From the NCBI GenBank assembly GCA_044892525.1, contig CM097885.1, positions 138,384,001 through 138,448,000 of the forward strand: a stretch of DNA of 64,000 nucleotides. Reading direction: 5' to 3'. Source of the stretch: Schmidtea polychroa (lineage: Eukaryota). The notes under the pieces were generated by a model. It was not told the DNA's origin and did no database searches. It saw only the letters and a list, made by a program, of their open reading frames with translations. The translations under genes and the position numbers were made by a program. Positions 137 to 50,483 of this stretch are shown here, one piece after another (position 1 is the first letter of the stretch; each line of letters begins with the position of its first letter).

Positions 137-1142
137 TGTTAGGGATAGGCCCCTGGCCTTAAATTATTTTAGAATCAGTTTTTTTTATTTTTATTAAAAG
201 GGATTAACTTTGTTTGGACACGCGAGAAATAATAGTTGTAGCAGCTTGCAGAAAAGGAGTGATTAGCAACAGTCAAAGAGAATTATAATTACCTGAGATA
301 GATTAAGCGAAACAATCAGCGTGGAATTATATTTTAGTTATTCAAGAGGAAATAAAAATCTGTTGTTTGAAAACAGCTGGTGTAGATTGACATTGAAATC
401 CCGAATTGGAGAAATTCTAGAAGTAGTTTCAAGTAACCAGGAAAACCAATATTGAAGCACAGCTGTTGTTTGAAGAGGAAATTTAGATATAAATTGTCGA
501 GCGGATTTCACAGACAAGAAAAAAAGAGAAAGTAGGAAGGAGAAAATATTAGAAGCGAATTAATATTGGAAAAAGCCTTGAGAAGTGAAATTGCCGGAGC
601 AGAAGAAATTAGACAGATTTGAAAAATCTAGAGAAGAATTTTTAGGAACCGAGAATATTTAAAAGTAAAGTTTAATTTAATTTAATTTAATTAAATATAA
701 GGGTGGGCGAGGATAAATTAGTATCCTGTGAAATAGTTATAAATAAAGCGAACACAAAGTATTGTTCTTTTACTTTAGTGTTCCCTGGGAGCCCCAAAAT
801 CATTCCCTCTTGCTTGCCCAACTCTTTTAGTCATATTGCGATTGTTGTGCTACATAGGAGCCAACAATTTCTTGCAGACTGTTGACAACAGTAGGGATCA
901 AAGAATCCGTTTTCTTGTACTCTTTGTACATATATTATAAAGTTCATTTGTAAATTATAAAATACATTTTTATAAAAAGAGAAAGGAGTTTTGTTTTTTC
1001 TTATTCAGTGATTTAAACTTAGACGCGCAACCACATTAAATATAACTTATTTATATTTATTTTTTATTTATTTATTTATCTTAATTGAATTATTGGAGTC
1101 ATTTGTGTTAAGATCTGTAGTCCCCGTTTTTCGATCTTAACA
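137..1142 (+). repeat. 5' LTR (1,006 bp)
   Basis: TGTTAGGG...TCTTAACA. Identical to the 3' LTR at offset 14076 apart from two mismatches found by eye (T533/A14609, C889/A14965). Confidence 0.97.
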
Positions 1143-1145
1143 TTT

Positions 1146-1163
1146 TGGTGAGCCCGACGTGAT
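1146..1163 (+). promoter_or_regulatory. Primer binding site, tRNA-Trp
   Basis: TGGTGAGCCCGACGTGAT, 3 nt after the LTR. 17/18 match to the known tRNA-Trp PBS TGGTGACCCCGACGTGAT. Confidence 0.9.
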
Positions 1164-1257
1164 CTAATTTACGGGGGGAATAAGAATTTTATTTATAAAC
1201 GACAAACATCTTTTTGAATCATTGAGTTAAGAAATAGGAGAGTAATAAATTTTAGAC

Positions 1258-1266
1258 CAGGTAATA
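1258..1266 (+). promoter_or_regulatory. Putative splice donor in the element leader (CAG|GTAATA)
   Basis: Consensus donor 20 nt upstream of the gag ATG. Could pair with the acceptor at 11958. Not confirmed by transcripts. Confidence 0.5.
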
Positions 1267-1280
1267 GAAACCAGCAAATA

Positions 1281-2306
1281 ATGGCAGAAATAAATAATTT
1301 ACAAAATCTAAATGAGAATAATTTACATAATAATGTGCCACTAATTCAACCACCAGCGGTAGATTTTATGAGATACCCAACAATTCCGATTAAACCATTT
1401 AGCGGAAACCCAGGGGAGTTTCCAGAATTTATGTCCGAATATTTTCAGTTAGCCAGAGCATTAGGATTTCCGGAACCGGTAATGATTTTGAGATTACCTT
1501 TATATTTAAAAGGGATGGCGCGGGAAATATATAACGATGTTATAATAGCCGAGCATCCAGTTGAATGGAATGTATTACGATTAGCGTTACAAAACAGAAT
1601 ATTACCGGGGGATGCAACTAGAGTGTTGAGACAACAGTTTTATAACAGGCGACAAAATTCGGGTGAGCATGTTGGGGAATTTTCATATCAAATAATGATG
1701 TTGGCAGAGAGAGCATTTGGCAATAGGGCAGCCTGGAATGATGCAACTAGAGCATTAGTAAAAGATCAGTTTTGGTCAGGGTTATCGTCAGCAATGAGAA
1801 ATGCACTCAGTTTACACATAGGAGATAATTTAGAGGAATTAACGCGCAAAGCGTGTTTAATTGAAAGTAGCATTGAGAAGTCAAATAATTTTGCAATCAG
1901 TAGCAATAAGTCAGACATTGAGTGTTTTAATTGTCATAAAAAGGGACACATGTCAAAAGATTGTAAAAGTAGGAATAATTCTCCAGGGGACAAATTGTGT
2001 ACCAAGTGTGGGAGAAATAATCATGTGGCATCAAACTGTAGAATTTCGGACCTAAATTGTGAGAAATGCAAGCGCAAGGGACATGTAGCGTCAGTTTGTA
2101 AAGCTAGTTTTGGGGGGAATAATTCAAATAATAGCAATAATAGAAATAGAAGCCCCGATAGGAATTTTCGAAGTAATAGTAATAACAATAACTTTCAGAG
2201 TAGAAATAATAATTTTAATAATAATATAAAAAGGGATGAAGTAAATTCGGGGGGTAAAATTAAATGTCATAAGTGTGGAAAATTTGGTCATATTATGCGT
2301 TCTTGT
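1281..2306 (+). other. gag: Gag domain with four CX2CX4HX4C zinc knuckles
   Basis: PIKPFSG...F..F..Y capsid-like start. Knuckles at 1923-1964, 1998-2039, 2058-2099 and 2265-2306. Confidence 0.92.
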
Positions 2307-5300
2307 CCACAAAATCAGTTATCTAATAACAATGGTAGTAGTAATGGTAATAATCGATCGAAGCAGACAACGTTTGCAGTGAATTCAGACAACAAATTAA
2401 CGTATTTGCAGCAGCTTGAATTAGAAATTCAAGGAGAGAAAAACAGGTTAGCAAGGCTAACAACAAAGGAAACCGATGGGTATGATGAAAATGAAGCTGT
2501 TTATATGATGTCAGCCAGAAAAAGGCGAAATAAAAATAATTATGTAGAACTTGAAGTGTTGATGCTTCAAGAAAGTCCACAGGAGGACAAAGAGGAAAAG
2601 ACTATGGTCATAGAACCAGAGGTCTGTGAGGGTTTACAGATTTCACCCAGGAAAAATCTAGTGGCTATGGCCATGGAGCCAGAAGCCAACAGAGAAATAG
2701 AAGGTTTACCGGTTTCACCAGTTAAAAATCGTAAGGCTATGGACATGGATCCAGCAGCTAAAGTAATTGTTCCAACAGAAGTTTTGGAAAAAAGATGGGC
2801 TTCGGTCAGTGAACCGGAAGTTCTTATAGCCACATCATCCATGCGAGGTGAGTGTGGTAGTGAACCAATAAAGGTTAGAGAAGCATCGAAAGAGGAAAGA
2901 AATCCCATCGATGACTGTAGAAAAGTATTATTACGCAAGAGCGTATGGCAAAGAGAAATGAGACAGAAATTAGAAAATATTCGTTTAAACCCCGTTAATG
3001 AGAATGAGGTTGACAAAGTAATGGATATCATATCAGAGTTAGACAGAAACGAGGAATATTATCCAGAATTGAGAGAAATTCTGAGAAATATTGGCCTAAA
3101 TTGGAAACAAAGAGAGAATCTGGAAGATTCTACAATTTTTGTATCTTTCCAAAAGGGTTGTTTTCGTAGATATACAATAAACCCAAGTGAAAAGGTAGAA
3201 GCATTGGCAAAGAGAGTTTCTGTGGTAAAACCTCAATTGAGATGCAAACTATATTTATTGGGAGAAAGGTTATTAGAGGGAGAAACCCTGTTAGATTGTG
3301 GTATACTACCAGGGAAACATATGGTTATAAAAGCAAAGTTTCACAAGGAAACTGTTACAGTAGTGGACTTGGATAATGTCCTTACAATAAGCGAGATTGA
3401 AATTGATCAATTAAATCAAATATCAGCCGTACCACATAGGTTGGGAATCGAGCTGATGAAAAACCCAAGAGATGGGGAGGCCATTAAGATGATAATGGAT
3501 TGGATACTGGAGTTGCGAATCCCAGTAGATACTCTTAGAGAGATAATGCCATTGGTGGTGCCTTTAGTAAAAGAGACATCACAATTTCAGACACAAGCAA
3601 AGATGCTGTTGATTAAAAATGGACATGCTATCAGACAATCGGAAGGTAGACAAGGTCCAGTGATGTTAGATATCAGGATACCCAGGAGAGGACACCTGAT
3701 ACAACAATTCTCATGTTATCATAGAGTAAAGAAACTGAGAAAAAGGATATCAGAAATAGTAAAAGAATCATTCCTAATAATGATACATGGTTGTCAGGTG
3801 GATGACGACGAATTTCTAGTAGATGTGGGATGTTTTCCCCAAGAGGAAACAATAGTAATGATATTGTTTATAGAGTTTCCAAAGGATCAGTGGGCAACTT
3901 TGAGATTGCCGGATAATGCAGAAATTGAGGAGGAGACAGTTCCTCTCGAGCAGAAACAAGTAGATGATGATACTCATCTAGAGACAGCAAAGACTGTAGA
4001 TCTCGATGAAGAGATAAATAGATATTTAAAGGAACTCGACAACACAGAGGATGAGTTGATCGAGATATTTCCACCAGAAGAAGATAAAATCATACAACTA
4101 AACCAGAATGAGACAAACATTGGAGCAAGTACCTCGAAATTATTGGAGCTACCAAGGGATAGGGTGGGCCCGAAGTTGGTCGAAAATAGGAGAAAGAAGG
4201 AGAGGAGAGGGAGACCGAGGAAGAGTCAAATGAACCCGTCTCCAAGAGAACTCCTAAGGCCAGTAACTATGCAAAATGTTACCAGACAGGCATTAGCCGG
4301 AATAGCTAGCCAAATAGATAAAAGCGTGGGAGACGCCAGTAGTAAAACAGAAACATGGAGGAAATTAAATCAGATATTACGATTGATTAAGCCTGAATGG
4401 CAAATCAAGAAAGATAAAGATATAAACGTTGAGAAAATCACTGAAAAGATAAAGAAAACAATGGGAAAGATCCCAGGAAATACCACGGAACAAGAAATGT
4501 GCGAAGTGGCAGAACAATTCCTAAATGAAGGAATGACGAAAGGGAAAATGATAACGATTTTAGCCTTAATGTTTAAAAATGCCTTAATGATACTTAAGGA
4601 TGATCAGTCAGGAATTCAAGCAGCCTTAGATAGGTTGACTAATATAATAGAAGTGAATTTCGGAACATGGATGACCGAACACAAGTTTTTGGAGATAAAA
4701 GAGACAAAAGGAAAATATGAGTTAAATGAGGAATTACTAACGGAAAACATTTCGAGTAATCCACGGGGAACAGGTGGATTTACCAGTTGGATGATGATGT
4801 TGTTAGTAATGATGGGAATATTGAGACAGACAAATTCCTTAACGGCATATGATTGTAGTGAACCAATACTATCACGAATATACTCATTAGTAGACACAGT
4901 GGAATGCAAGGAAGCATATCCAGACAAAGTGGCTAAAAGGGAAGATGTAGAATTTTACGTTTATCAACAAACAGAATTTTACCGAACAAGGATAAGGGAA
5001 TGTCGAATACAGAGAGCGACATTTGAATACTATTGTGGATCAAATAGTTATTCAGCATTTTTAGGAGCCAAACTTATTCCCGTACCCTTGATAATCCCAC
5101 CAGAGGATTGTGTAAATGCTTTTCGATCAAAGACGGTCAAAATAGATGATGAAGTGACAATTACTGCTGAAGAGGGAAAGAAATTGGGTATAACTATTAC
5201 CCGGGGAGGACCAATAGCAGATGATGGTTCTTGTCAGGATAGAAAGAAACTACGAGGTTCTAATGTAGTAAGCTATGTGGTAACAGTTGAGGATTACACA

Positions 5301-8177
5301 GTAGAGCTGATCGAGTACGAAGGAACTTTTGAAGTTTCTACGGGGAAAATGATGTCGCATCCAGAATGTAATGCAAAGTTTGGTTATTGTAAAACCAGTT
5401 TAGCAGTATTGACTTATCAATCAATGAGAGATTTTTGTGATTTGGGATACTTGAAAAAGGTAGTATTTTCAAGGCTTGATGGGAAAAGCTTTACGTCTCA
5501 AGACACGAAACAGAGTGGTTGGGGAGACAAGATGGCTCACAAAACGAAAAAAGAGGAAGTAGCAGAGAAAAACACAGCGGTAGTGTTAGTCTCAAAGGAT
5601 CCAACAGACGCAATACGATTAGTCAGAAAGAAACAGACCACAAAGTGTGGAGTATTAACATTTGAAACAAATTATAAAGGAATATATTTAACACACAAAT
5701 ATGTTCCAGCAGCTGAATCGTTACATTTATCAGATATCAAGATAACCAAGTATATCAATAACAAGATTGACTTTCTGTATCATGACTTACAGAAGCAACT
5801 GTTAGATGTATACCAGGAAGTGATCCTGAATGATTGTCGTTTGAACAGAGAAATAATACGTAACAGGTTAGCAATATCGATAGCTAATCCAGATTTAGTA
5901 ATGCCAATGTTAACGGAGGAAGGAACATTTGGTAGAATATTGGGAGAAGCAATCTACAGTTATCAATGTAAAGCAGTAGAGGTAGAAGTCACCAGATATG
6001 ATCAATGTACTGTAGAGCTTCCGGTAAGATATGAAGGAAAACTGAGATTTATGATGCCGGTATCGCATCAGTTATTAAAGGAGGATACATCACCGTTAAA
6101 AACAGTTTGCAATCCAGCAATGTCACCATTGTACAAGATTAACAATATATGGATTTCATTACCAGATAGAAAACCACCTTCGAAACCAGTAGAAGTACTC
6201 CAAGCTACAAAACTGGAAACTAAAATGGAGTTTAGACCATTGAATGAAATGTCAAAAGGTGGAGTATACACTCCAGAGGAGATTGAAGAAGCTCGGAGAG
6301 CAATTGTATTTCCCCAAATCAGAGATAGGGGAGTAACAGAGATAATAACTAGAATCTATCAGTCATATGATGGTAAACCAGATTACAATTTATTATTTGG
6401 GCCGGAACACTACAAACAAGCTGCATCAAATGTGATACGGAAAATCTGGGGTAGATTTACAAGTTTTGGAATATTTGTAGCAGGATGTTCAGGGATATAC
6501 GCAATAATAATGATATTGAAAATAATCATATCACAATTATTTTCCACGTATAGTATCTTCAAGATCGGAGGGTGGTCTTGGAAGTTGCTATTAGGAATGT
6601 GTCCAGTTTGTGCAGACTTTGCAGTATTTCATCATCATAATAAAGAGATTAAGAGAATGAAGAGACAAACTATTAAGAAGCATGAGTTAATAATGTACGA
6701 ACCTAGTCATCGAGACGATGACAATTCTGACGAGGGAGGTAACCTAGAGGGCTACGAGACCTCAGATAACACATCAACAAATCCAGACAACAAAAAACCG
6801 AAATTTAAAAATTTTGAAAATAGAACTTATCAACAGCACCCTGTTAAAGATAAAAATCGGAAAGGACTAAAATGGCCGGTGAAATATTTATCACCTTACA
6901 CAACCAGGAAAAAGATAATATCGGAACAAGTAGAGGAGGAAATGATAAAGCGGCTTGATTTTAGAACAAGTATAGATATAGCAACACCCTTGCCATATCC
7001 GAAATATAATATGAAATTTGAAACAATGCCAGCAATCGGCACATCAGCCATAGAAATGATACCAAGATACCCATTTAGTACGCTGGAGCGTCTAAAGGAA
7101 AATTACCAAGAAGAGACAAAATCGGAAGATGATAAAGACAGCGAGAATCAACAGAAATTTAGAGATAATATCCGAGGAATTTCAACAATATTTATGGTGA
7201 ATATTGGGAAAAAGACTAATAAGCCTACAATTAAATTAAAGGTAAACAGGCATACAGTACATGCCATCATCGACTCAGGATCAGATTTAACACTGATCGA
7301 AGCGAATCTATTAAATGAAAAAGAACTACAAGCAATAGTACCAACATTAACGGGAGCAACTGGAGCAAACGGACAGCCGATCAATGTTATCGGAACATTA
7401 GAGTGTGAATTACGGCTGTGCGACCAGAAATTTAGACACGATATCAAAGTCACAAGAAAATGTATGGCTGAATGTATCGTGGGAATGGATATATTGAAAA
7501 AATTAAAAGATATTGTCTTCGATTGTGCAACAGGTGAATTAGTAAAAATGACGAGTAGAAAACGAAAAACCTACAGTGTGGATGTAGTGTTTCTAGATAG
7601 AACGGTAACCATACCACCAAGAACCGAGACAGTTTGTTTTGTAGCCACACACCAAGAGGTGGAGGGAGATGTTATTTTCGAACCTAGTGAGCAGTTCGTG
7701 AATAGATATAAAACGCCCATGGTGCAAAACTTGGCAACAGTACGGGGAGGAAGAATTCCCATTCGATTAACAAATTTAGCAAGCAAGTCATTGAAACTGT
7801 ACCCAGAAACGAGAGTAGGTAAAATAATGCAACTTGCAAATGTACCCAAAGAAAGTGAGACGATACTATCAGTGCAAGAGGATGAACGAGATCCAGATAT
7901 TGAATATTATGATGCACCAAGTTGTGATAGTAAAGCATTAACTAGAAAAGAGAACATCAGAGTTAATCAGTTGTTACGTAAATATGACCAAGTTTTTGCA
8001 AAACACGAATATGATTTAGGGCAAGTTAATATCTTAGAGCATGAAATTAAATTAACAGAAAATAAACCGATAAAAATACGCCCGTACAGAATACCTCAAA
8101 GTATACAAGGGTCCGTGGATAAACAAATTAAATTAATGCAAAAATATAATATAATTAGACCAAGTAAATCTCCATAG
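1281..8177 (+). CDS. Polyprotein part 1: Gag - accessory domains - Env - protease - start of RT (2,298 aa; ends at a TAG inside the RT motif)
   Basis: Single ORF with a gag capsid-like N-terminus, 4 CCHC knuckles, glycoprotein, IIDSGS protease motif (Asp at 7272) and RT start KQIKLMQKYNIIRPSKSP*. Confidence 0.93.
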   Translation: MAEINNLQNLNENNLHNNVPLIQPPAVDFMRYPTIPIKPFSGNPGEFPEFMSEYFQLARALGFPEPVMILRLPLYLKGMAREIYNDVIIAEHPVEWNVLRLALQNRILPGDATRVLRQQFYNRRQNSGEHVGEFSYQIMMLAERAFGNRAAWNDATRALVKDQFWSGLSSAMRNALSLHIGDNLEELTRKACLIESSIEKSNNFAISSNKSDIECFNCHKKGHMSKDCKSRNNSPGDKLCTKCGRNNHVASNCRISDLNCEKCKRKGHVASVCKASFGGNNSNNSNNRNRSPDRNFRSNSNNNNFQSRNNNFNNNIKRDEVNSGGKIKCHKCGKFGHIMRSCPQNQLSNNNGSSNGNNRSKQTTFAVNSDNKLTYLQQLELEIQGEKNRLARLTTKETDGYDENEAVYMMSARKRRNKNNYVELEVLMLQESPQEDKEEKTMVIEPEVCEGLQISPRKNLVAMAMEPEANREIEGLPVSPVKNRKAMDMDPAAKVIVPTEVLEKRWASVSEPEVLIATSSMRGECGSEPIKVREASKEERNPIDDCRKVLLRKSVWQREMRQKLENIRLNPVNENEVDKVMDIISELDRNEEYYPELREILRNIGLNWKQRENLEDSTIFVSFQKGCFRRYTINPSEKVEALAKRVSVVKPQLRCKLYLLGERLLEGETLLDCGILPGKHMVIKAKFHKETVTVVDLDNVLTISEIEIDQLNQISAVPHRLGIELMKNPRDGEAIKMIMDWILELRIPVDTLREIMPLVVPLVKETSQFQTQAKMLLIKNGHAIRQSEGRQGPVMLDIRIPRRGHLIQQFSCYHRVKKLRKRISEIVKESFLIMIHGCQVDDDEFLVDVGCFPQEETIVMILFIEFPKDQWATLRLPDNAEIEEETVPLEQKQVDDDTHLETAKTVDLDEEINRYLKELDNTEDELIEIFPPEEDKIIQLNQNETNIGASTSKLLELPRDRVGPKLVENRRKKERRGRPRKSQMNPSPRELLRPVTMQNVTRQALAGIASQIDKSVGDASSKTETWRKLNQILRLIKPEWQIKKDKDINVEKITEKIKKTMGKIPGNTTEQEMCEVAEQFLNEGMTKGKMITILALMFKNALMILKDDQSGIQAALDRLTNIIEVNFGTWMTEHKFLEIKETKGKYELNEELLTENISSNPRGTGGFTSWMMMLLVMMGILRQTNSLTAYDCSEPILSRIYSLVDTVECKEAYPDKVAKREDVEFYVYQQTEFYRTRIRECRIQRATFEYYCGSNSYSAFLGAKLIPVPLIIPPEDCVNAFRSKTVKIDDEVTITAEEGKKLGITITRGGPIADDGSCQDRKKLRGSNVVSYVVTVEDYTVELIEYEGTFEVSTGKMMSHPECNAKFGYCKTSLAVLTYQSMRDFCDLGYLKKVVFSRLDGKSFTSQDTKQSGWGDKMAHKTKKEEVAEKNTAVVLVSKDPTDAIRLVRKKQTTKCGVLTFETNYKGIYLTHKYVPAAESLHLSDIKITKYINNKIDFLYHDLQKQLLDVYQEVILNDCRLNREIIRNRLAISIANPDLVMPMLTEEGTFGRILGEAIYSYQCKAVEVEVTRYDQCTVELPVRYEGKLRFMMPVSHQLLKEDTSPLKTVCNPAMSPLYKINNIWISLPDRKPPSKPVEVLQATKLETKMEFRPLNEMSKGGVYTPEEIEEARRAIVFPQIRDRGVTEIITRIYQSYDGKPDYNLLFGPEHYKQAASNVIRKIWGRFTSFGIFVAGCSGIYAIIMILKIIISQLFSTYSIFKIGGWSWKLLLGMCPVCADFAVFHHHNKEIKRMKRQTIKKHELIMYEPSHRDDDNSDEGGNLEGYETSDNTSTNPDNKKPKFKNFENRTYQQHPVKDKNRKGLKWPVKYLSPYTTRKKIISEQVEEEMIKRLDFRTSIDIATPLPYPKYNMKFETMPAIGTSAIEMIPRYPFSTLERLKENYQEETKSEDDKDSENQQKFRDNIRGISTIFMVNIGKKTNKPTIKLKVNRHTVHAIIDSGSDLTLIEANLLNEKELQAIVPTLTGATGANGQPINVIGTLECELRLCDQKFRHDIKVTRKCMAECIVGMDILKKLKDIVFDCATGELVKMTSRKRKTYSVDVVFLDRTVTIPPRTETVCFVATHQEVEGDVIFEPSEQFVNRYKTPMVQNLATVRGGRIPIRLTNLASKSLKLYPETRVGKIMQLANVPKESETILSVQEDERDPDIEYYDAPSCDSKALTRKENIRVNQLLRKYDQVFAKHEYDLGQVNILEHEIKLTENKPIKIRPYRIPQSIQGSVDKQIKLMQKYNIIRPSKSP
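3132..3344 (+). other. Ubiquitin-like domain 1 (no C-terminal diGly)
   Basis: TIFVSFQKG...INPSEKVE...P...KLYLLGERLLEGETLLDCGI aligns with ubiquitin IFV..LTG...VEPSDTIE...P...[20 protein letters not shown]. Confidence 0.72.
3660..3869 (+). other. Ubiquitin-like domain 2 (more divergent)
   Basis: V..LRKRISE...LIMIHGCQVDDDEFLVDVG follows the beta-grasp pattern V..Lk.kI...l...G..l.Dd..L.D.g. Confidence 0.5.
4266..4690 (+). other. Bcl-2-like helical domain
   Basis: EVAEQFLNEGMTKGKMITILAL resembles BH1 ([22 protein letters not shown]). NFGTWMTEH resembles BH2 (HLEPWIQEN). BH1-BH2 spacing matches Bak/Bcl-xL. Confidence 0.55.
4788..6630 (+). other. env: Envelope glycoprotein, chuvirus-G / herpes gB-like (class III fusogen), embedded in the polyprotein
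   Basis: Internal signal peptide WMMMLLVMMGILRQTNS, then LTAYDC. 14 ectodomain Cys. Motif RNRLA...NP...G.FG...GEA.Y..QC..V.V...C..ELPV. TM helix about 6465-6535. Confidence 0.82.
7230..7830 (+). other. Aspartic protease followed by a dUTPase-like beta domain
   Basis: HAIIDSGSDLTLI...CIVGMDIL, then VTIPPRTE...IPIRLTN...LYPETRVG, typical of the Gypsy PR-RT linker. Confidence 0.85.
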
Positions 8178-8186
8178 TCCTCACCT

Positions 8187-10484
8187 TTGGTGGTTGTAGC
8201 TAAAAGAGACGGCTCAGTTAGATTATGTAATGACTATAGGAAATTAAATGAACAGACAGTAAGTGACAATCACCCGCTAACTTTGTTAGATTACATTTAT
8301 GATAAAATGAAAAATTCAAAGTTGTTTACTGTGATGGATGCACAGAAAGGTTTTTATCAAATAAAGATGAGCGAAGACTCAATTCCTATGACAGGATTTT
8401 CTACAAGTAGTGATCATTTCGAATACTTAGTAATGCCGTTTGGATTAAAAGGAGCCCCTCCAACTTTTCAGAGGGCAATGAATATCATGTTGATGGATGC
8501 ACATCACGCAATGGTATATATAGACGATATTATCATCTTCTCGGAAGATTTAGATAAACATTTGGAACATCTTGAAGACATTTTCAAACGATTAATCATG
8601 GCAAACTTAAAAGTTAAACCAAGCAAATGTAAATGGGCAGAATCGGAAGTGATTTACGTGGGGCATGTAATATCACACGATTGCGTAAGACCAGATCCGG
8701 CTAACACGGATAAAGTAAAGAATTTCCCACAACCAGTGAATGTGAAACAAATCAAAGGATTTTTAGGGTTGACGGGATACTATCGGAAATTTATACGAAA
8801 TTTTTCAGCAATTGCTTTTCCTCTAACTACATTAGAAAAGAAAGGTATAAAATTTTTATGGGGAGAAGACCAGCAACAGGCATTTGATAAGTTAAAAGAT
8901 GCACTATGCAAACCACCAATTCTACGATTTCCAGATTTTAAAAGACAATTCATGGTGATGACCGATGCATGCACAAGAGGCATAGGTGCAGTTTTGGGAC
9001 AGAAAGACGAAATTGGCGATGAATACGCAGTAGCATATGCAAGTCGTGGATTGAAGCCACACGAAAAAAGTTATGCTGTAATAGAATTGGAAGCATTAGC
9101 ATTAGTATTTGCAGTGGAAAAATTTAGTCATTATCTATGGGGCAGAAAGGTAATTTTCTATACGGATCATAGACCACTACAATGGTTATTGAAACACAGA
9201 GATGAAGCGTCAAAATTAGTAAGATGGGCATTGAGATTGCAGCCCTATAATATTGAAATAGTATACCGAAAAGGTAAAGCCAATGGTAACGCTGATGCAT
9301 TATCAAGAATGGAACAGGAACCGGAAGCGGAAGATATAAAAGAAGGAAGATTAGAAGGAACTATATTTATGTTGACAAGGGAAGCAAACACCTTGATCGA
9401 CTTGGTAGAGGCACAGAAAAGTGATGACGAAATTAATATGATCAGACAAGCTATAGAAGCCAAAGCCATACCAAGCGAGTTTCAGAAATATTGGGAGAAA
9501 CATAAAGATAAATTCATATTAGACGAAGGTTTGATCAAATATGTAGAGGCAAAAGATAACGTTATATTAGTGCCAAAGAAATATAGAGAACCCTTATTGT
9601 TACAATACCATGATGGAGCACTGGGAGGGCATCTCTCAGCAAGACATACATTGTCTAGATTAAAAATGAAGTATTTTTGGCCAGATATGAAAGATGATGT
9701 CAAGAAATGGTGCCAAACATGCAAGATATGTGTAACCAGGAGGAACACAGGCAGGAAACCTCATGTTCCGTTAAAACCAATGCCAGTACCGTCCTCGCCA
9801 ATGGAGATGACCGCTATGGACGTACTAAGGCCATTTAAAGAATCAAATATGGGAAATAAATTCATAATTGTGTTCTGTGACTACTTAACCAAGTGGCCAG
9901 AAGCATTTCCAATACCGAATCATAAGGCAGATACAATCGCCAGAATTTTTGTCGAGCAAATTGTATTCAGATATGGTGTTCCAACAAAATTACTAACTGA
10001 CAGAGGAAAAGATTTCATGAGTAATTTATTAAAAAGTGTCAATGATTATTTCGGCATATTAAAACTGAACACTTCACCCTATCACCCTCAAACCGATGGT
10101 TTAGTGGAAAGGTTCAATGGAACCTTGGCTAACATGTTATCATCATATGTGAACTCAGGGCAGACGGATTGGGATGTACATATACCGTCCTGTTTGTTCG
10201 CATACAGAAATGCAGTTCACTCAGTCACAGGAGAAACACCATTTTACCTGATGTATTTAAGGCATAGCAAGATGCCAGTAGATCTTTTATTTTATCCTAA
10301 AGCTTCACAAAATTGTGATGAAGGAAATTACCTATTTGAGATGAGAGAAAGGATGCAAGAAGCCTGGGAGAAGGCAGGTTTAAACATTCGTTACAAGCAA
10401 GAGACAATGAAGGAGTATCATGATCGTAAAGCGAAAGATCATGGGTTCTTAGTAGGCGACTATGTAATGCTAGAAGGACATTAA
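8187..10484 (+). CDS. pol: Pol: reverse transcriptase, RNase H, integrase (in frame with the upstream ORF; flanked by premature stops)
   Basis: RLCNDYRKLN, MPFGLKGAP, YIDD; RNase H TDAC/ELE/TDH/DALSR; HHCC zinc finger; DDE core (AMD, LTDRG, VERFN). Same frame as 1281. Confidence 0.96.
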   Translation: MVVVAKRDGSVRLCNDYRKLNEQTVSDNHPLTLLDYIYDKMKNSKLFTVMDAQKGFYQIKMSEDSIPMTGFSTSSDHFEYLVMPFGLKGAPPTFQRAMNIMLMDAHHAMVYIDDIIIFSEDLDKHLEHLEDIFKRLIMANLKVKPSKCKWAESEVIYVGHVISHDCVRPDPANTDKVKNFPQPVNVKQIKGFLGLTGYYRKFIRNFSAIAFPLTTLEKKGIKFLWGEDQQQAFDKLKDALCKPPILRFPDFKRQFMVMTDACTRGIGAVLGQKDEIGDEYAVAYASRGLKPHEKSYAVIELEALALVFAVEKFSHYLWGRKVIFYTDHRPLQWLLKHRDEASKLVRWALRLQPYNIEIVYRKGKANGNADALSRMEQEPEAEDIKEGRLEGTIFMLTREANTLIDLVEAQKSDDEINMIRQAIEAKAIPSEFQKYWEKHKDKFILDEGLIKYVEAKDNVILVPKKYREPLLLQYHDGALGGHLSARHTLSRLKMKYFWPDMKDDVKKWCQTCKICVTRRNTGRKPHVPLKPMPVPSSPMEMTAMDVLRPFKESNMGNKFIIVFCDYLTKWPEAFPIPNHKADTIARIFVEQIVFRYGVPTKLLTDRGKDFMSNLLKSVNDYFGILKLNTSPYHPQTDGLVERFNGTLANMLSSYVNSGQTDWDVHIPSCLFAYRNAVHSVTGETPFYLMYLRHSKMPVDLLFYPKASQNCDEGNYLFEMRERMQEAWEKAGLNIRYKQETMKEYHDRKAKDHGFLVGDYVMLEGH

Positions 10485-10496
10485 AACAAAAAGGGA

Positions 10497-11759
10497 TTGT
10501 CTCCGAAGTTGATGAGAAATTATAAAGGCCCATATCAAATAATGAAGGTCACGGAAACAAACTTGATTTTACAGTTAGTGTCAAACAAGAAAGCGGAACC
10601 CATTATGGTTCACGTAAACAGATGTAAAAAGATAGCTCCACCAGAAAAGGAGAAGCCAAAATCAGAAATAGAAGAATTCGAAATTAATAAGAAATCGAAA
10701 AAGAAAACGTTGGAATCATACAAAAGTATCCTAAAGGGACAACCAGAGAGGTATCCTTTAAGATCCCGACAGATTCCGAAAACTGTAACATTTTTGTCAA
10801 TAATCAGTTGTGTTATGATGATAGGACAAGCATTTGAATTGTTTGATCCAGAAGCTAGTCATCACCCGGATATAGAATACCGGAGAACGGATAGATCATT
10901 CAGATTTTATTTGACAAATCCGCAATGGCACAGATATGATTTATATCTGACAACTCCAGAAAGAGGAGTATCTTTCCATCTAAATCTATGGGATCGAGTG
11001 AAGATAATAGATGGATTATTACCAAATACCAGTTATCTCCTAGAAATTAAGACATATATGTCAGATCCAAACGTGTTCGCAAATGGAGGAGATTGCGATG
11101 ACAAAGCAGAATGGATCGTGAGAACAGCGGTATTTAAGGAAAAAGTGGAAATTACGTATCAGAACCAGACAGTTAAATTCCATCATTTATATTGGAGGAA
11201 AAGTAACACATTTTCTGAACATGATTGGAGAATAAATAATCGAATAGCGCTCCTATACATATTAGAAAATAATAAAACAGTAAAGCAGTTAGTACTCAAC
11301 CAAGCTTATCAACGGAGGAGCTGGACAGTTAAACAAAATATCGAAACGATAGCCAATATAACGTATATGGAATTCACAGAGGAAACAGGCTGGTATACGG
11401 TGTATCATGAGATGATAAAATTAACACCTCCAGCAATAAAGGAAGTAGCTAACCGACGATGGGAGGCTAGATTAGTAAATATCCCGGGTTGTAGAGGAAT
11501 AAATACAATGGATTGGACGAATTTTCAAAGGGTAGCGAGTGAAAAACGTTCACGTGAAAATAAAATAATTAAAAATTGTTCATGTCAGACTGAACTTAAG
11601 GGAAATTCAGGAGATAAAATGCCAAATTGGCTAATCATAACTATTGTAGGGGGAGTAATAATTATGATATTGAGTTTAATAATAGCTACCTTGTGGATGT
11701 TTAAATTAATAATGAGGGACATAAGGTATTGGGAAAATATTTACGAGACCGAGGTTTAG
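10497..11759 (+). CDS. Integrase GPY/F tail plus signal peptide and FN3-like type I membrane glycoprotein
   Basis: LSPKL...YKGPYQI (GPY/F). Signal-like TVTFLSIISCVMMIGQA (10782-10832). FN3 signature IIDGLLPNTSYLLEIKT (11004-11054). Five N-glycan sequons. TM WLIITIVGGVIIMILSLIIATLWMF (11628-11702). Same frame as 1281. Confidence 0.75.
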   Translation: MSPKLMRNYKGPYQIMKVTETNLILQLVSNKKAEPIMVHVNRCKKIAPPEKEKPKSEIEEFEINKKSKKKTLESYKSILKGQPERYPLRSRQIPKTVTFLSIISCVMMIGQAFELFDPEASHHPDIEYRRTDRSFRFYLTNPQWHRYDLYLTTPERGVSFHLNLWDRVKIIDGLLPNTSYLLEIKTYMSDPNVFANGGDCDDKAEWIVRTAVFKEKVEITYQNQTVKFHHLYWRKSNTFSEHDWRINNRIALLYILENNKTVKQLVLNQAYQRRSWTVKQNIETIANITYMEFTEETGWYTVYHEMIKLTPPAIKEVANRRWEARLVNIPGCRGINTMDWTNFQRVASEKRSRENKIIKNCSCQTELKGNSGDKMPNWLIITIVGGVIIMILSLIIATLWMFKLIMRDIRYWENIYETEV

Positions 11760-11946
11760 GGGGAAAAAGTCTCACCAACAAACTAGGCAATGTAAATATA
11801 TAGTTATCTATTTAATAAACCTTATTTATAGTAATGTATTAAAAGTGTGAGCTCAACTGAGCAAAGGTAAAATCAGACATCAGCGTATGTCGACCTTGTG
11901 TACCCTGGGAGGGTCTATCACGAAAGTGATAAAAGCTATTAATTAA

Positions 11947-11958
11947 TTTTATTTTCAG
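11947..11958 (+). promoter_or_regulatory. Putative splice acceptor immediately before the ORF3 ATG
   Basis: TTTTATTTTCAG|CA ATG: polypyrimidine tract plus CAG, 2 nt before the start codon. Confidence 0.6.
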
Positions 11959-11960
11959 CA

Positions 11961-13979
11961 ATGGATCAGAACAGAATGACAAAAGCCCCAATCAAAGCAA
12001 ACAGACGACTTCAAATGGCAAAATACAATTCCCTATGTCCAACAGATATGGAGGTATACAGTACCTTCAAGGAGGAATACGTATACCGGTTCATAGGAAC
12101 CACGGTAGAAACGAAGATGAATCATTTCACTTCGAATAATTGGTATTATCCTAGGAGAGTGGATATCCCAAACGATTATAAATTCCCAGGTGGACCTCAC
12201 AGACAAATGATGATAACGGTTGTAAGCAACCAAGGGAGAATAAAGTTAGGAGATTTATGCAGAGAATATGGATCATGCCCAAGGAGAGAGAACATTTGGA
12301 TTCACGCTATAAATAGGCCAATCACGGTGTTCATGGCAGGTATGGACCTACCCGTGGAATTGGATAAATATAGTACGTTGGAAATATACCATTCAGATGG
12401 ACGTGAAAAGAACATTCAAGTTCAAGCAGCAGCAATAAATTCAATAATAGCGGTGGAAATATTGGAGTTTAGGAAACAACACCCTATTGTGAGTCGAAAT
12501 GAGCCGACATGGATTTATAATGTCAACGAAGCCGACATACAACAGTGCAAGTCGTTCGTAAGAAAATACCTAACAAAAATCGAGGAGGATGAGGCCACAG
12601 TTTTTGTATCAGCAAGATTTGCAAAATCCAGGATGGAGTTAAAAGAAACACTAATCCAAATTGCGATAGTGGATATGAGAGGCAACAATTTATTGAGTGC
12701 GGTAGTGACTCCCAAGGACCCAGTTAAACACTACCAGACGCACCAATATAAACTGAAGGAACCAGAAATCAGAGGAAATTTGGATAAAGACGATTGCCAC
12801 CACCTTATTAGGAAAATTTGTGACAAGAAAATTATAGTTGGAATTTTAATAAAAGATTTAGTTTCGGTAGCCAATCTACCAGTGCAACGATTGTTAGGAA
12901 TCAGAGACTTATCAGCAAATAAGTTGTTAGAATCCAGAGGAGTCCCCAAGATACATGGTCATTATAAATTGGGATTCCTAACAAAGACGTTTTTGCGTAC
13001 GGTTCCCGGAGAACCAAGGAATTTAGTTGTAACAAACGAGGCACTTGCGATCCGAGCGGTTTACCTACAAATCCGAAATGAATGGGTAGATCATATCAGC
13101 ATGCCTCAGGAAGATTACATGTCAGCAACCCGGGCGGAAGCGGTTGACTTAGAAATATTGCAGAAACGAAGACTACCCGAACAACCTTCTACATCAGAAC
13201 AGCCCCAGGCAAAGAAAAGGGGTAGGTCACCAGCAGATTTACCACCACCTCCAACAGTGTCGATAGGAGAAGAAGAATATGAAACATGCGTAAGTGAAGC
13301 TGAATTAACAAGTCCACTCAAACCATCTACTAGTGTCGCAAAGAAATCACAGAAAAAGTCAGAAGTTAAAAGTGCAAAGGAAACCCCAGAGGTAGGCACA
13401 GTCAAAAAGATATTAAAAAAAATAATACCTGGCAAATGCGATAAATCGAAATTGAAATTGAAAAAGGTTGCCAAACAACCAGGGGAGAAGATAGAAATAC
13501 CATCCAGCAAGGATGAAGTAAACAAAGCAGAGCCCAGGAAATTATTTACGGAACCCGATGATGACTTAATGGAAATTGAATTCCAACCTCCAACCAAGGA
13601 ATTGCAAGAGAAAATTAAAATCAAATCAGAACCCGAAGTACGAAAGAAAATGTTAAAGCTAACAAAAGAAAATGTCATAAAGAAGCCAGTATCAGTAGAC
13701 GTAGATGGATTTGATCCTATGTGGTATAAACGTCCTGACAGGAATTGGAAGCCTAGAGCCAAAGAATATAATGGCCAACCCATCACGAGGATGGCGATAA
13801 ATAACAATCAACAATATGATGAGTTTGACGTAGATGGGATACCTTATGTGATATCTACAGTCATACTAACATGCGCCCTGGATGATAAAGCCCTGGCTGT
13901 GAGTTTCGAGCCAGAGGTATTGAAGGAGGTACATCTATACAAAGTTCCTGAACCAGATCCCGACGATCTGGATGTCTGA
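11961..13979 (+). CDS. Element ORF3 (672 aa): unknown N-domain, ISG20/REXO4-like DEDDh exonuclease fold (apparently inactive), Lys/Glu/Pro-rich tail
   Basis: 12597-13064: IQIAIVDMRGNNLLSAVVTPKDPVKHYQT, KIIVG...KDL, IRDLS, YKLGFL, EALAIRAVY track the REXO4/ISG20 pattern, but ExoI DxE reads SAR. NLS-like AKKRGRSP. Confidence 0.75.
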   Translation: MDQNRMTKAPIKANRRLQMAKYNSLCPTDMEVYSTFKEEYVYRFIGTTVETKMNHFTSNNWYYPRRVDIPNDYKFPGGPHRQMMITVVSNQGRIKLGDLCREYGSCPRRENIWIHAINRPITVFMAGMDLPVELDKYSTLEIYHSDGREKNIQVQAAAINSIIAVEILEFRKQHPIVSRNEPTWIYNVNEADIQQCKSFVRKYLTKIEEDEATVFVSARFAKSRMELKETLIQIAIVDMRGNNLLSAVVTPKDPVKHYQTHQYKLKEPEIRGNLDKDDCHHLIRKICDKKIIVGILIKDLVSVANLPVQRLLGIRDLSANKLLESRGVPKIHGHYKLGFLTKTFLRTVPGEPRNLVVTNEALAIRAVYLQIRNEWVDHISMPQEDYMSATRAEAVDLEILQKRRLPEQPSTSEQPQAKKRGRSPADLPPPPTVSIGEEEYETCVSEAELTSPLKPSTSVAKKSQKKSEVKSAKETPEVGTVKKILKKIIPGKCDKSKLKLKKVAKQPGEKIEIPSSKDEVNKAEPRKLFTEPDDDLMEIEFQPPTKELQEKIKIKSEPEVRKKMLKLTKENVIKKPVSVDVDGFDPMWYKRPDRNWKPRAKEYNGQPITRMAINNNQQYDEFDVDGIPYVISTVILTCALDDKALAVSFEPEVLKEVHLYKVPEPDPDDLDV

Positions 13980-14199
13980 CCGAAGGAAATTGCCAGAAGC
14001 CGTTCAATTGAGTGTAAATACGAACTTATCTATATGTGTTTTATGGGACATGGACATTACTTTGTGATTCTGTCATTTATTATTTTGGGAATATGTGTTT
14101 ATATTTTGTTTTATGATTTATGGTAATTTTTATGTAATACTGTTGTCTGCAGTTCTCGAAAAATAATTTTATATCTTGTTTTCGGGACGAAAATCTTTT

Positions 14200-14210
14200 A
14201 GGGGGTAAGA
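14200..14210 (+). promoter_or_regulatory. Polypurine tract
   Basis: AGGGGGTAAGA, 2 nt upstream of the 3' LTR. Confidence 0.75.
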
Positions 14211-14212
14211 CT

Positions 14213-15218
14213 TGTTAGGGATAGGCCCCTGGCCTTAAATTATTTTAGAATCAGTTTTTTTTATTTTTATTAAAAGGGATTAACTTTGTTTGGACACGCG
14301 AGAAATAATAGTTGTAGCAGCTTGCAGAAAAGGAGTGATTAGCAACAGTCAAAGAGAATTATAATTACCTGAGATAGATTAAGCGAAACAATCAGCGTGG
14401 AATTATATTTTAGTTATTCAAGAGGAAATAAAAATCTGTTGTTTGAAAACAGCTGGTGTAGATTGACATTGAAATCCCGAATTGGAGAAATTCTAGAAGT
14501 AGTTTCAAGTAACCAGGAAAACCAATATTGAAGCACAGCTGTTGTTTGAAGAGGAAATTTAGATATAAATTGTCGAGCGGATTTCACAGACAAGAAAAAA
14601 AGAGAAAGAAGGAAGGAGAAAATATTAGAAGCGAATTAATATTGGAAAAAGCCTTGAGAAGTGAAATTGCCGGAGCAGAAGAAATTAGACAGATTTGAAA
14701 AATCTAGAGAAGAATTTTTAGGAACCGAGAATATTTAAAAGTAAAGTTTAATTTAATTTAATTTAATTAAATATAAGGGTGGGCGAGGATAAATTAGTAT
14801 CCTGTGAAATAGTTATAAATAAAGCGAACACAAAGTATTGTTCTTTTACTTTAGTGTTCCCTGGGAGCCCCAAAATCATTCCCTCTTGCTTGCCCAACTC
14901 TTTTAGTCATATTGCGATTGTTGTGCTACATAGGAGCCAACAATTTCTTGCAGACTGTTGACAAAAGTAGGGATCAAAGAATCCGTTTTCTTGTACTCTT
15001 TGTACATATATTATAAAGTTCATTTGTAAATTATAAAATACATTTTTATAAAAAGAGAAAGGAGTTTTGTTTTTTCTTATTCAGTGATTTAAACTTAGAC
15101 GCGCAACCACATTAAATATAACTTATTTATATTTATTTTTTATTTATTTATTTATCTTAATTGAATTATTGGAGTCATTTGTGTTAAGATCTGTAGTCCC
15201 CGTTTTTCGATCTTAACA
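14213..15218 (+). repeat. 3' LTR (1,006 bp)
   Basis: Near-identical to 137-1142; followed by TSD AATT. Confidence 0.97.
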
Positions 15219-15843
15219 AATTGTTTTAATTTTTAAAGATTTTTATAGCATTCAATATAGAATTAAATTATAAGACTTTCTCATTACACAATTTTCATCA
15301 AATCAATATTTGTTATTAAATGTTATAATAATCTTATATAATATTTATTTTCATTTTAGATGTTCTAGATCCAACCGAATTTATCTCAAAATCCAGAAGA
15401 CAGAAAGCCACAGAAAGGCATAGTTTCATAAAATCAATATTTTTGGTTAAGAGGTCTGTTGAAATTAATACAAACTTTAGACAAAAAAACGCTTTTTATG
15501 TAATGCTAAAATTAAGCTTGATTGATCGTGATTTGATGACATTCGAATAATTTCTCCGAAATTTTTTGCAAAAGCTTTCACTAAAAAATTTCGCGATTTA
15601 AAACATATATTGAGATGATGTGCAATTTACTCCTCAGATTTCTTTATAATGTCATTTTTATCGATTTCCAAAAATTATTTTGTACGATAACTGTAAATAA
15701 TACCTATTGTATGTTGAATTTGTATGTCTGATTATTATGTAATGTATGTTTGTTAAAGCGAAATGGAAAATAATTAGTGAAAAGTGAAAATTAAAACGAA
15801 AATTTTGTAATTGCAACACTTTAAATTTTAGACGAATGAAACC

Positions 15844-46798: not shown

Positions 46799-46931
46799 TA
46801 TAAGTTAGATATCTTGTTGTTTTAATAATTAGGAATTTGCGGTTTTTGTGAATTAATTAAAACTTGTTATTTATAAATTCTTTGATTAAATATATATTGT
46901 TAGTTTCAAGATTTTTGCTGCAAATTTAAAG

Positions 46932-47615
46932 ATGGATCTAAAGATGGATTTAACTGGCGACCACGCTGAAAATCAAAATATGAACGCCATTTCAAAATCG
47001 ACAAAATCGCTAATGGAATGCCTACCGAAATCATGCCAAGACATGCTCACACTGAACATCAGACGATATGATGGACGAGGTTTAAAAGAAGCCGAAGAAG
47101 AATGGTTGCTGACAAATGGACAGCGATTGACAAGCACTTTCGATGTGTTATTAGTGGCAGAAGCAAAGACATTGTGGGAAAACGTCAGAGAAACAGAAAC
47201 AACAGATGTAAAAGCCAAAGCGTGGTTCTTGAATACGTTCACAATTACAAAATCTATAACTGACAAAATCAGAGAATTGGCAGCTATGGAACAGGAAGAT
47301 GATGAAAGGTTTGCAGCTTTTGAGATACGGCTAAGAAAAGTTTTAGCTGAAGTTGTAAATTCAGGACGATCAGAAGAAGATATTGTTCAAGACCTCATCG
47401 CAAATAAAGCAGGCGATGCGAGACTGCGGGAGATACTATTGACGAAACCAGAAACAAAAATTGAAGAAACGAGATCATTGGCGAAAATTTTTGAAAGTAA
47501 CAAAAATGGAAACCATAAAACAGAATTTGTTAAAGCAATCGGTCAAAGAACATACGCTAGCGTGACTGAGGGAGGGCTGATGAGAATTCAACAGAATACC
47601 CAAAATAAATTGTGA
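46932..47615 (+). pseudogene. gag: gag of copy A, truncated (zinc knuckles deleted)
   Basis: Helical gag with EQEDDERFAAFEIRLR. Lacks the CCHC segment present in copy B. Confidence 0.8.
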
Positions 47616-47817
47616 AATAAGAAATGAACGACGAAGAGGCGAGGCAGAAGAAGAGATGTACCAGACGAAAGATGGAAGAAATTGGAGTAAAATAATGTTG
47701 AATAATGATCAGGGAATACGGCGGAATTTTTATGGCATCGAAATTCGATCTGGAATTTACAAACTTAGTTCAACATGAGATGCGGATAACAGGAGGCAAC
47801 ATCCTCGACGTCAACCA

Positions 47818-50317
47818 ATGCACACGGAGAAAAGGATTGAAGAGCTGATAAAAGAGTTAATGAAAGCAAATGTTATTCGATGTTGCAAGAGTCCTTGGAA
47901 TGCCCCGTTAGTTATAGTAGGGAAGAAAGATGGATCTGTCAGGATGTGTGTAGATTATCGTGGATTGAATTCCATAACAGAAAAAGAGTCATTTCCTATG
48001 CCTAACACCAAATTCTTACTAGACTGTCTCGCGAATGCAAAAGTATTTTCGTCAATCGATTTAGGTCAGGCGTATTATCAAGTGGAGTTGGCTCCAGAAA
48101 TTCAAGAAATGACTGCATTCAGTACAAGAGAAGGACAATTTTGCTTCAATAGACTACCGATTGGCTTAGCAACAGCTCCTGCGACATTCCAGTGACTGAT
48201 GCACACAGTGCTAGAAGGAATGCTATTCAAGGGAGTAGTAGTTTATCTAGATGATATCTTGGTATATGGTAAAAGTCAAAAAGACCACGATGAGCTATTA
48301 AGGGAAATATTCAGAAGAATTAAATTGGCAGGACTGAAGATAAATCCAGAAAAATGCAAATTCAATAAAACAGAATTGTGTTTCCTTGGTCACACAATTA
48401 ACGAGAAGGGTATCCAGACAAACAGGAAGAAAGTGAAAGAGATCGAGAAAGCAGAAGTACCAAAATTTTCAAAACAATTGAGATCGTTTCTCGGATTAAC
48501 GAACTACTATAGAAGATTCATCAAAGACTATGCCAAAATCGCCGAACCATTATACGCTGCAACATCTGGATGCGATAAAGATATAAATTGGACTAAAGAA
48601 TGCAATGAGAGCTTCCAAACTCTGAAGAGACGGTTGTGCGAAGCACCTATCCTTGATTTTCCAAGAGAAGATAGGACTTTTATCTTAGACACAGACGCTA
48701 GTTTCGGAGCCATTGGTGCAGTTTTGAGTCAAATTACAGAAGATGGAGAAGAATCTGTCATAGCTTATGGCTCGAGACATATGTCATCACATGAAAAGGG
48801 ATACTGTGTAACCAGGAAAGAACTGCTCGCCGTACATGAATACGTCATGCATTTTAGAGAATATCTGTACGGGAAAAAATTCATAATTCGCACCGACCAC
48901 AAGGCATTGGTTTTCATGAACACTACAAAAACGCCAATCAGTCCGCAATTCCAAACATGGTTAGCTAACCTGTCGGAATATGATTTTGAACTAAAATATC
49001 GGAAAGGAGAAGAACACTCAAATGCAGATGGACTATCAAGATTAAAAAGTATGGTTTGCACCCAGTGTCAAACAAGACATGAAGAAGCTAAGGAAGGAAA
49101 ATCAAAGATTAGATATATATATACTATCCAAAGAACAGAAGCTATGGAAAAAGTATGGGAACAACAACAAAAGGACATTCGGTTTCGAGAACTGCGAGAG
49201 ATATTGGAAAATGGATGTACACGGGAGAAAAAAAATTGTTTTCCTTTTAACGTAAAAAATTCACAAATTGATGGAGGATTAATAACAGTAGAAAAGAACA
49301 AAAATATCTTAATGTTAGTCCCAGAAACATTGGCAGGCCTGTTAACAACAACGCTACATGAAGAACTATGTCACATTGGAGTTAAGAAATTATTTCATTA
49401 TATGGAAAAGATATTTTATTGGCCGAAAATGCAAGAAACAATCCAACTCTGTTTACAATGTTGCGAGATCTGCGCTAAGAGAAAGATCGATCAGACAAGA
49501 ACCAAGGAAACATTTATTCCTAGATATAGCTCTGAATTCCTAGAACAGATTGTTATAGATGTGGCTTACATGGAAATAAACGCCAAAAAAATATATGGTA
49601 GTAATGGTGGACCGTTTTAGCAAACTGATTTCTTTAACTGCAATCACAAAGCAAGACGAAGGGACCATTTTCAAAACAATACTTAATAGTTGGATCTATC
49701 GATTTGGAAAACCGAAGAGTATTTTAACAGATAGAGGCCGAAATTTCGAAGGGAATTTCCTAAGACAGAAGCTACAGAAACTTGGAATCAAACAGGAATT
49801 CAGCTCACTTTATCAGCACCAATCAAATGGTTTAGCCGAAAGAGCCATACGAACGATAAGAGATCTTATTACAGCAACATTGGCAGGCGGATGTGAAGAG
49901 AGAAACTGGCACGAACTTCTACCCAGAATAGAGTTCACTATAAATAGCAGTCGACAAAGTGCTACAGGTTTATCACCATTTGAGATAATTTATGGACGGA
50001 GTGTTAACCTACACTCTAACCTGAAACAAGCCGAGATATCAAGAAGCGAAAGAATCGAAGACGCGAGATTTAACTCGAGTAAAGCCGCAGACACTATGAG
50101 AGCTATGGATAAGACAAAGAGGGGCACTCGTGTTTTCGAGGTGGGGGAGGAGGTACTCGTACGTAAAGAGCCGCAGAACAGGCACAAGGATGGTATGCAA
50201 TACGATGGCCCATATAAAATCGCCAGATTTCTATCACCTCATCGAGTCGAACTACATTCACAAGAAGGAACGAAAGAAAGAAGAATCGAGTGGCTAAAGA
50301 AGTGGAAAAAGTCTTAA
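47818..50317 (+). pseudogene. pol: pol of copy A (RT, RNase H, integrase) with one stop and one frameshift; protease deleted
   Basis: SPWNAP, MCVDYRGLN, TFQ*LM (TGA at 48193-48195), YLDD, TDAS, HIGVKKL...CEIC. Frameshift in the A-run near 49585. LTDRG, AERAIR, YDGPY. Confidence 0.93.
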
Positions 50318-50483
50318 GAAGGGGAGAGTTAGATATCTTGTTGTTTTAATAATTAGGAATTTGCGGTTTTTGTGAATTAATTAAAACTTGTTATTTATAA
50401 ATTCTTTGATTAAATATATATTGTTAGTTTCAAGATTTTTGCTGCAAATTTAAAGATGGATCTAAAGATGGATTTAACTATAT

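Follow-up and report, generated by a model that had tools for sequence, protein, structure and literature searches.

The 64,000-nucleotide stretch of Schmidtea polychroa DNA analyzed here (contig CM097885.1; hereafter the window) carries a Ty3/gypsy element of 15,082 bp (about 15.1 kb) at positions 137-15218, with no runs of N inside it (Table 1). Its LTRs are 99.8% identical, with two mismatches and no gaps over 1006 bp; together with their TG..CA ends and the AATT duplication around them, this near identity indicates a recent insertion. The primer-binding-site-like sequence next to the 5' LTR may resemble the 3' end of tRNA-Trp. The element belongs to Ty3/gypsy by its TG..CA LTRs with a target-site duplication and by the order protease (PR), reverse transcriptase (RT), RNase H (RH) and integrase (IN), with a gypsy-type RT; the best PDB match of Pol is Ty3 Gag-Pol (E 2.2e-104). 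The stretch 4788-7530, where an envelope glycoprotein fused in frame between Gag and protease had been noticed, is the env region of this recently inserted retrotransposon, which is of the Burro-like GAG-ENV-POL kind. Elsewhere in the window lie a small env-less gypsy element (46803-50479; direct repeats of ~153 bp, gag, RT-RH and IN), an inverted and decayed relative of it (59817-63476) and, on the minus strand at 56857-57396, part of a host gene of the actin family: an exon that matches Pfam Actin at E 1.9e-48 and looks Arp2-like by eye.

Table 1. Features of the Ty3/gypsy element, in window coordinates (KD, hydropathy value).
Feature	Position	Strand	Basis or remark
Target-site duplication AATT	133-136 and 15219-15222		Flanks the LTRs
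5' LTR	137..1142	+	1006 bp, TG..CA ends
Primer-binding-site-like sequence	1143..1164	+	Starts TGG
Gag with CCHC zinc knuckles	1281..2360	+	Start of ORF1; zf-CCHC E 1.2e-11
Ubiquitin-like domain (weak)	3135..3317	+	Pfam ubiquitin E 0.065
Bcl-2-like helical domain (predicted), degenerate BH1/BH2	4335..4679	+	Profile of copies, AF2 helices
Internal signal peptide 1 (predicted)	4779..4838	+	Hydropathy, conserved cleavage register
Env ectodomain with predicted herpes gB-like (class III) fold	4839..6455	+	PF24664, AF2, Foldseek
Env transmembrane helix (TM1)	6471..6527	+	KD 2.29; family-wide
Second, weakly hydrophobic stretch (WSWKLLLGMCP...)	6573..6629	+	KD 1.26; Lys, Pro and Asp inside
Retropepsin protease	7218..7508 (aa 1980-2076)	+	RVP E 4.5e-8
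In-frame stop, window copy	8175..8177	+	Just upstream of RT core; open in siblings
RT - RNase H - integrase, Ty3/gypsy type	8178..10481	+	Pfam, ORF1 frame
Second in-frame stop, window copy	10482..10484	+	Integrase C-terminal region; open in siblings
Internal signal peptide 2 (predicted)	10782..10832	+	After integrase, ORF1 frame
Two fibronectin type III (FN3) domains	10863..11435	+	Predicted lumenal
C-terminal TM	11628..11702	+	KD 3.04; ORF1 frame ends at 11759
Splice-acceptor-like site	11942..11958	+	Directly upstream of ORF2
ORF2, 672 aa, ISG20L2-like DEDD exonuclease-fold domain	11961..13979	+	Profile vs PDB 7yw5, E 6.7e-9
3' LTR	14213..15218	+	Purine-rich tract upstream

ORF1 of the window copy (1281-8177, 2298 aa) is open from the zinc knuckles of Gag through Env to the protease, which bears out the in-frame position of Env. 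The continuity of PR-RT-IN with Env that the initial annotation assumed holds in sibling copies but not in the window copy, where two stops intervene; the segments past both of them stay in the ORF1 frame as far as 11759. With these stops, the product of the window copy could extend no further than the protease. Intact siblings encode a single polyprotein of ~3,490 residues, with the following order in one frame: Gag, ubiquitin-like domain, Bcl-2-like domain, signal 1, gB-fold ectodomain, TM, PR-RT-RH-IN, signal 2, two FN3 domains and TM. The layout first proposed was thus incomplete, lacking the Bcl-2-like domain before the signal, the membrane protein after the integrase and the two stops.

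Searching the window's own genome (781 Mb), where 71 of 3038 candidates were scored, gave 48 matches at no less than 90% identity (window included), of which 11 keep a frame 3513-3516 codons long; another 23 matches, at 65-67% identity, include four with frames of 3366-3369 codons. A family search, with 68 of 2580 candidates scored, revealed a third family with frames of 3334 codons. Eleven copies were read as separate halves, and the open frame was verified in both halves of L001-L004, L007 and L008. Four families in this genome share Gag, signal, Env, TM and PR, followed downstream by a second signal and TM, the post-integrase part of the fourth being seen only in a deleted copy, L017. In that copy (G000:C52:146500-156400), an internal deletion joins Env-TM-PR in frame to the second signal, ectodomain and TM, and RT, RNase H and integrase are absent from the frame. 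Three copies with a 3516-codon frame each stand 14,218 bp apart (G000:C2:100878457, 100892675 and 100906893), likely as a tandem array with shared LTRs. Compared with L003, the window copy shows a synonymous divergence of 0.08-0.16 over aa 28-880 and of 0.3-1.4 or more downstream, with a jump at about position 3920 (aa ~880), which indicates that one of the two subfamilies arose by recombination and that they share the part comprising Gag and the ubiquitin-like domain.

The Env search over 1.84 billion representatives returned 1257 matches. The best were Env-PR or Env-PR-RT-IN polyproteins, and the others were mostly stand-alone glycoproteins of ~650 aa. Among the 17 scanned library proteins, Env is followed by protease or RT in 11 (P0001-P0004, P0006-P0008, P0010, P0011, P0014 and P0015 being the Env-PR fusions). 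Two or more retropepsin-like stretches follow Env in several library relatives (P0001, P0002, P0003, P0004 and P0010). Searches for near-length homologues of Env and ORF2 gave none, and a longer-length search gave one. In a tree of 52 of the 115 near-complete Envs, for which 35 stand-alone ones were picked at random, all 15 fused Envs fall, along with three fragments, in one clade of 18 tips (support 0.71). The Env ectodomain is as constrained as the protease: between the window copy and L003, dN/dS comes to 0.05 and 0.04, respectively, and to 0.03 in RT. The env-containing layout is well conserved and under selection. That Env might be a recent copy-specific or functionless insertion, a possibility that the initial annotation had itself raised and that the two breaks in the window copy could suggest, is scarcely credible given its presence in the 48 close matches, in all four families and in the 11 library polyproteins, and given the low dN/dS of its ectodomain.

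In the Gag part of ORF1, Retrotrans_gag is matched in the relative copy L013 (E 8.7e-8). The ubiquitin-like domain is matched in the same copy at E 0.0024, such matches lying under the curated Pfam cut-off. Closer to Env, the profile of five copies retrieved the Bcl-2 family in all 60 PDB matches listed (best E 4.4e-4), and PF00452 is matched along its whole length in the relative L019, a weak match under the Pfam cut-off (E 1.1e-4). The window protein alone has no Bcl-2 match in Pfam, nor did this region give a match when searched singly. It is entirely helical in the AF2 model, and we predict a Bcl-2-like domain here from the weak profile match and the all-helical model. The Env signal occupies the place where the tail anchor of a Bcl-2 protein would sit.

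Signal 1 shows as a hydropathy peak at aa ~1163-1184, with its hydrophobic segment at aa ~1165-1181. In this family its hydrophobicity is only moderate (KD 1.46 over 19 residues), and the net charge of its cytosolic flank is -2. The predicted cleavage point follows aa 1186 or, alternatively, aa 1189. An internal site of signal-peptidase type had been proposed upstream of Env, and its conservation is clear: a small residue stands at -3 in 21/21 and at -1 in 20/21 N-extended sequences (five from the window's genome, and four probably not polyproteins), and the register of cleavage is that of the N-terminal signal in 75 stand-alone relatives. Signal 1 could instead be an uncleaved signal-anchor, so that Gag and Env would remain one covalent chain spanning the membrane, and only the element's own protease would free the capsid, on the cytosolic side. 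Some gB-type ectodomains are indeed described, in the accessible text of PMC13524379, as flanked by two TM domains, but the conserved small residues at the stand-alone register and the short h-region (the helix covers only aa 1167-1180 in the AF2 model) make such an anchor quite unlikely, and we favor a cleaved signal.

Downstream of this predicted cleavage, the ectodomain matches Pfam Monjiviricetes_fusion (PF24664, E 1.7e-79) and has 14 Cys. Env alone has no match below E 0.9 among PDB sequences, and a profile of 104 sequences finds herpes gB weakly (E 0.006). The AF2 monomer model built on these 104 sequences for aa 1000-1790 has a mean pLDDT of 83 and displays the long central helix typical of class III fusogens. 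Foldseek places herpesvirus gB on top (HSV-1 gB, 5v2s, E 4.3e-14), and all matches listed are gB, at TM-scores of 0.2-0.45. The modeled fold agrees with the class III, gB-like assignment proposed at the outset, and Env is a predicted class III fusogen by fold. The label glycoprotein calls for a correction: the window ectodomain contains no R-x-K/R-R furin site and no N-glycosylation sequon, against 2.2 sequons expected (P 0.08). Fused Envs have 0-3 sequons (median 2, n=14), whereas stand-alone relatives have a median of 4 (n=71); the rank test gives P 5e-7 for sequences that are related and so not independent.

A single TM helix after the ectodomain, also part of the initial proposal, is found family-wide: TM1 (aa ~1731-1749) has a median KD of 2.28 across 18 fused sequences, and ten Lys/Arg lie in aa 1746-1800. 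The second stretch has a median KD of only 1.35 (range 1.01-1.71) in the same 18 sequences. Were it a true TM, protease and Pol would be placed in the lumen, an outcome named in advance as incompatible with the proposed topology. Its strong conservation (dN/dS 0.03 when taken together with TM1, window vs L003) and a KD of 1.7 in one fused relative could be read that way. Yet the stretch contains Lys and Pro, is equally found in 71 stand-alone proteins (median KD 1.28) and forms two short kinked helices after a Gly-Gly break in the AF2 model. Signal 2 and the FN3 ectodomain moreover require the end of the integrase to be cytosolic, and purifying selection acts on RT and IN in an element that is still inserting. 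We regard a lumenal Pol as very improbable and read the second stretch as a cytoplasmic helix pair on the membrane surface, too weak for a TM, which would leave PR-RT-RH-IN in the cytosol. Hydropathy, conservation and the AF2 monomer together predict four passages of the ORF1 polyprotein through the ER membrane.

The last two of these crossings belong to the part after the integrase. A sequence-profile search with the FN3 region returned chance matches only, and its ectodomain has five sequons where 2.5 are expected (P 0.09, not significant alone). A signal-like segment also follows the integrase in the library proteins P0004, P0006 and P0014. Beyond ORF1, the ISG20L2/ISG20-like exonuclease-fold part of ORF2 is under strong purifying selection (dN/dS 0.03, window vs L003), and by eye its catalytic acidic residues are not all retained. 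DEDD ORFs occur in rotifer LTR elements, according to the accessible part of PMC5408684.

The long frame may also be a matter of genomic layout only, with splicing, internal initiation or early polyadenylation giving separate messages, in which case neither the threading of Pol nor a 1:1:1 ratio would follow. ORF2 does seem to depend on splicing, the site upstream of it being the only acceptor above threshold in 13,070 internal bases, and the window, L002 and L004 each have an acceptor-like site ahead of the ORF2 start codon. Cer1, a single-ORF relative, yields a spliced product (PMC10309623, accessible text); several AATAAA occur inside ORF1, and signal 1 contains Met residues. Within ORF1, one acceptor-like site was found in L003 and one in L019, but none above threshold in the window, L005 or L013. 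The 15 joints listed for four contig sets include no GT..AG joint, a weak indication, since none of these sets is confirmed to be RNA. Three families also keep the frame open over 3,300-3,500 codons, and we consider separate messages unlikely. In X6, position 2952 has a loose end with poly(A), which adjoins an A-rich stretch and was rejected as probable internal priming.

The novelty implied for an env in frame between gag and pol does not hold: it was published for planarian Burro in 2019 (PMC6431247), and the GAG-ENV-POL order in 2026 (PMC13524379), as far as the accessible text of both goes. In the same text, Burro ORF1 is given an in-frame succession of Gag, Ubi2/SUMO-like, BCL2, env and PR and is presented as the first case of its kind (PMC6431247). 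Our element resembles these giant gypsy elements (Burro/GYPSM1) in its Gag, ubiquitin/SUMO-like and BCL2-like parts, in the env before PR-RT-RH-IN and in the single ORF, with Ubi and Bcl-2 matches that are weak here. The env is a further likeness, that of Burro being reported to match mononegavirus fusion glycoproteins (PMC6431247, accessible text). Our element differs in size (15.1 kb with LTRs of 1.0 kb, against >30 kb) and in the length of ORF1 (~3,490 aa in the window family, against 4,873). As it falls short of the giant size of >30 kb, we call the element Burro-like rather than Burro. MATH, BIR, ankyrin and dUTPase domains have no Pfam match in it at E<=1, a search that does not reach remote forms. 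Section 7 of the Burro description, the part available, names no topology, no FN3 membrane protein after the integrase and no exonuclease-fold ORF (PMC6431247).

The "ancient errantiviruses" of Platyhelminthes, Nematoda and Bryozoa have GAG-ENV-POL order and an ENV of HSV/gB type, and include six Schmidtea mediterranea families with spans of 14.5-18 kb (PMC13524379, accessible text). Our element shares with them a Ty3/gypsy pol, a gB-type env upstream of pol and the multi-copy state; its env lies between gag and pol, and its ectodomain, gB-like in the monomer model, lies between signal and TM. Intact, near-identical copies are a property of the family and not of the window copy. Among the six families, the Env of Smed_errantivirus_4 is nearest to the window Env by eye (PMC13524379, accessible text). 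Neither the window nor five copies contain any of four short Smed_errantivirus_4 motifs, so, as far as these motifs tell, the window element is of a different family. Nematode non-canonical ERVs with env before pol and a continuous gag-env-pro-pol frame were reportedly described by Sacco et al. in 2022; their host phylum differs from that of the window element. Chuvirus-like G and the BEL-Pao "Anakin" env (PMC7642597) share the family PF24664, the Cys pattern, the TM and a C-terminal GW motif with our Env, but are stand-alone proteins of ~650 aa that begin with their signal and carry more sequons (their median is 4, that of fused Envs 2).

From flavivirus-type polyproteins, threaded through the membrane, host signal peptidase excises lumenal proteins and leaves the signal behind as an upstream anchor. 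Any likeness of our element to them is an analogy without homology, since its fusogen is class III, not class II, and it is reverse-transcribing. We think it probable that signal 1 directs a single ORF1 product to the ER, that signal peptidase makes two cuts in it and that the retropepsin acts afterwards. Signal 1 would open translocation, be cleaved and remain as the C-terminal anchor of the Gag-ubiquitin-like-Bcl-2-like part. The Env TM would bring the chain back to the cytosol, suspending Pol between the Env tail and signal 2, whose cleavage would release the FN3 type I membrane protein. Signal peptidase would thereby yield Gag-ubiquitin-like-Bcl-2-like-anchor, Env-Pol-anchor and the FN3 membrane protein, and the element's own retropepsin would cut after the host enzyme. 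All three of Gag, Env and Pol, together with the RNA from which they are translated, would begin on one patch of ER membrane; Env trimers would gather the proteases there, and particles could bud already equipped with the fusogen and a putative attachment protein.

With no stop, frameshift or strong acceptor in ORF1, Gag, Env and Pol should be synthesized equally. Capsids need Gag in excess over Pol, and this misfit probably points to turnover, RNA processing or some other unseen regulation. A tentative, rather doubtful extension is that the element makes infectious particles with a two-component entry machinery, in which the gB-like fusogen works beside an FN3 protein for attachment and both are released by signal peptidase from the chain that also holds Pol. 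Pol would be held at the membrane by both its ends so as to be packaged, and the Env signal would be reused as a tail anchor that arms the Bcl-2-like domain as a regulator of host cell death.

The gene order itself is already known. The main text of PMC13524379, figures aside, makes no mention of polyprotein, fused, signal peptidase, Bcl or fibronectin, and the literature covered by our search, outside which lie most subscription papers and figures, gives no processing of such a polyprotein, no signal serving as a Bcl-2 anchor and no FN3 partner. Four-pass processing, a second use of the Env signal as anchor for the Bcl-2-like domain and the FN3 protein as partner are predictions beyond the published layout. 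The entry route of the gB-type fusogen is called unknown in the accessible text of PMC13524379; if the four-pass model is true, the FN3 membrane protein would be a candidate partner for it, and a retroelement would package its Pol by membrane tethering and not by Gag-Pol fusion. Since the element is young and present in many copies, its endogenous products can be sought directly.
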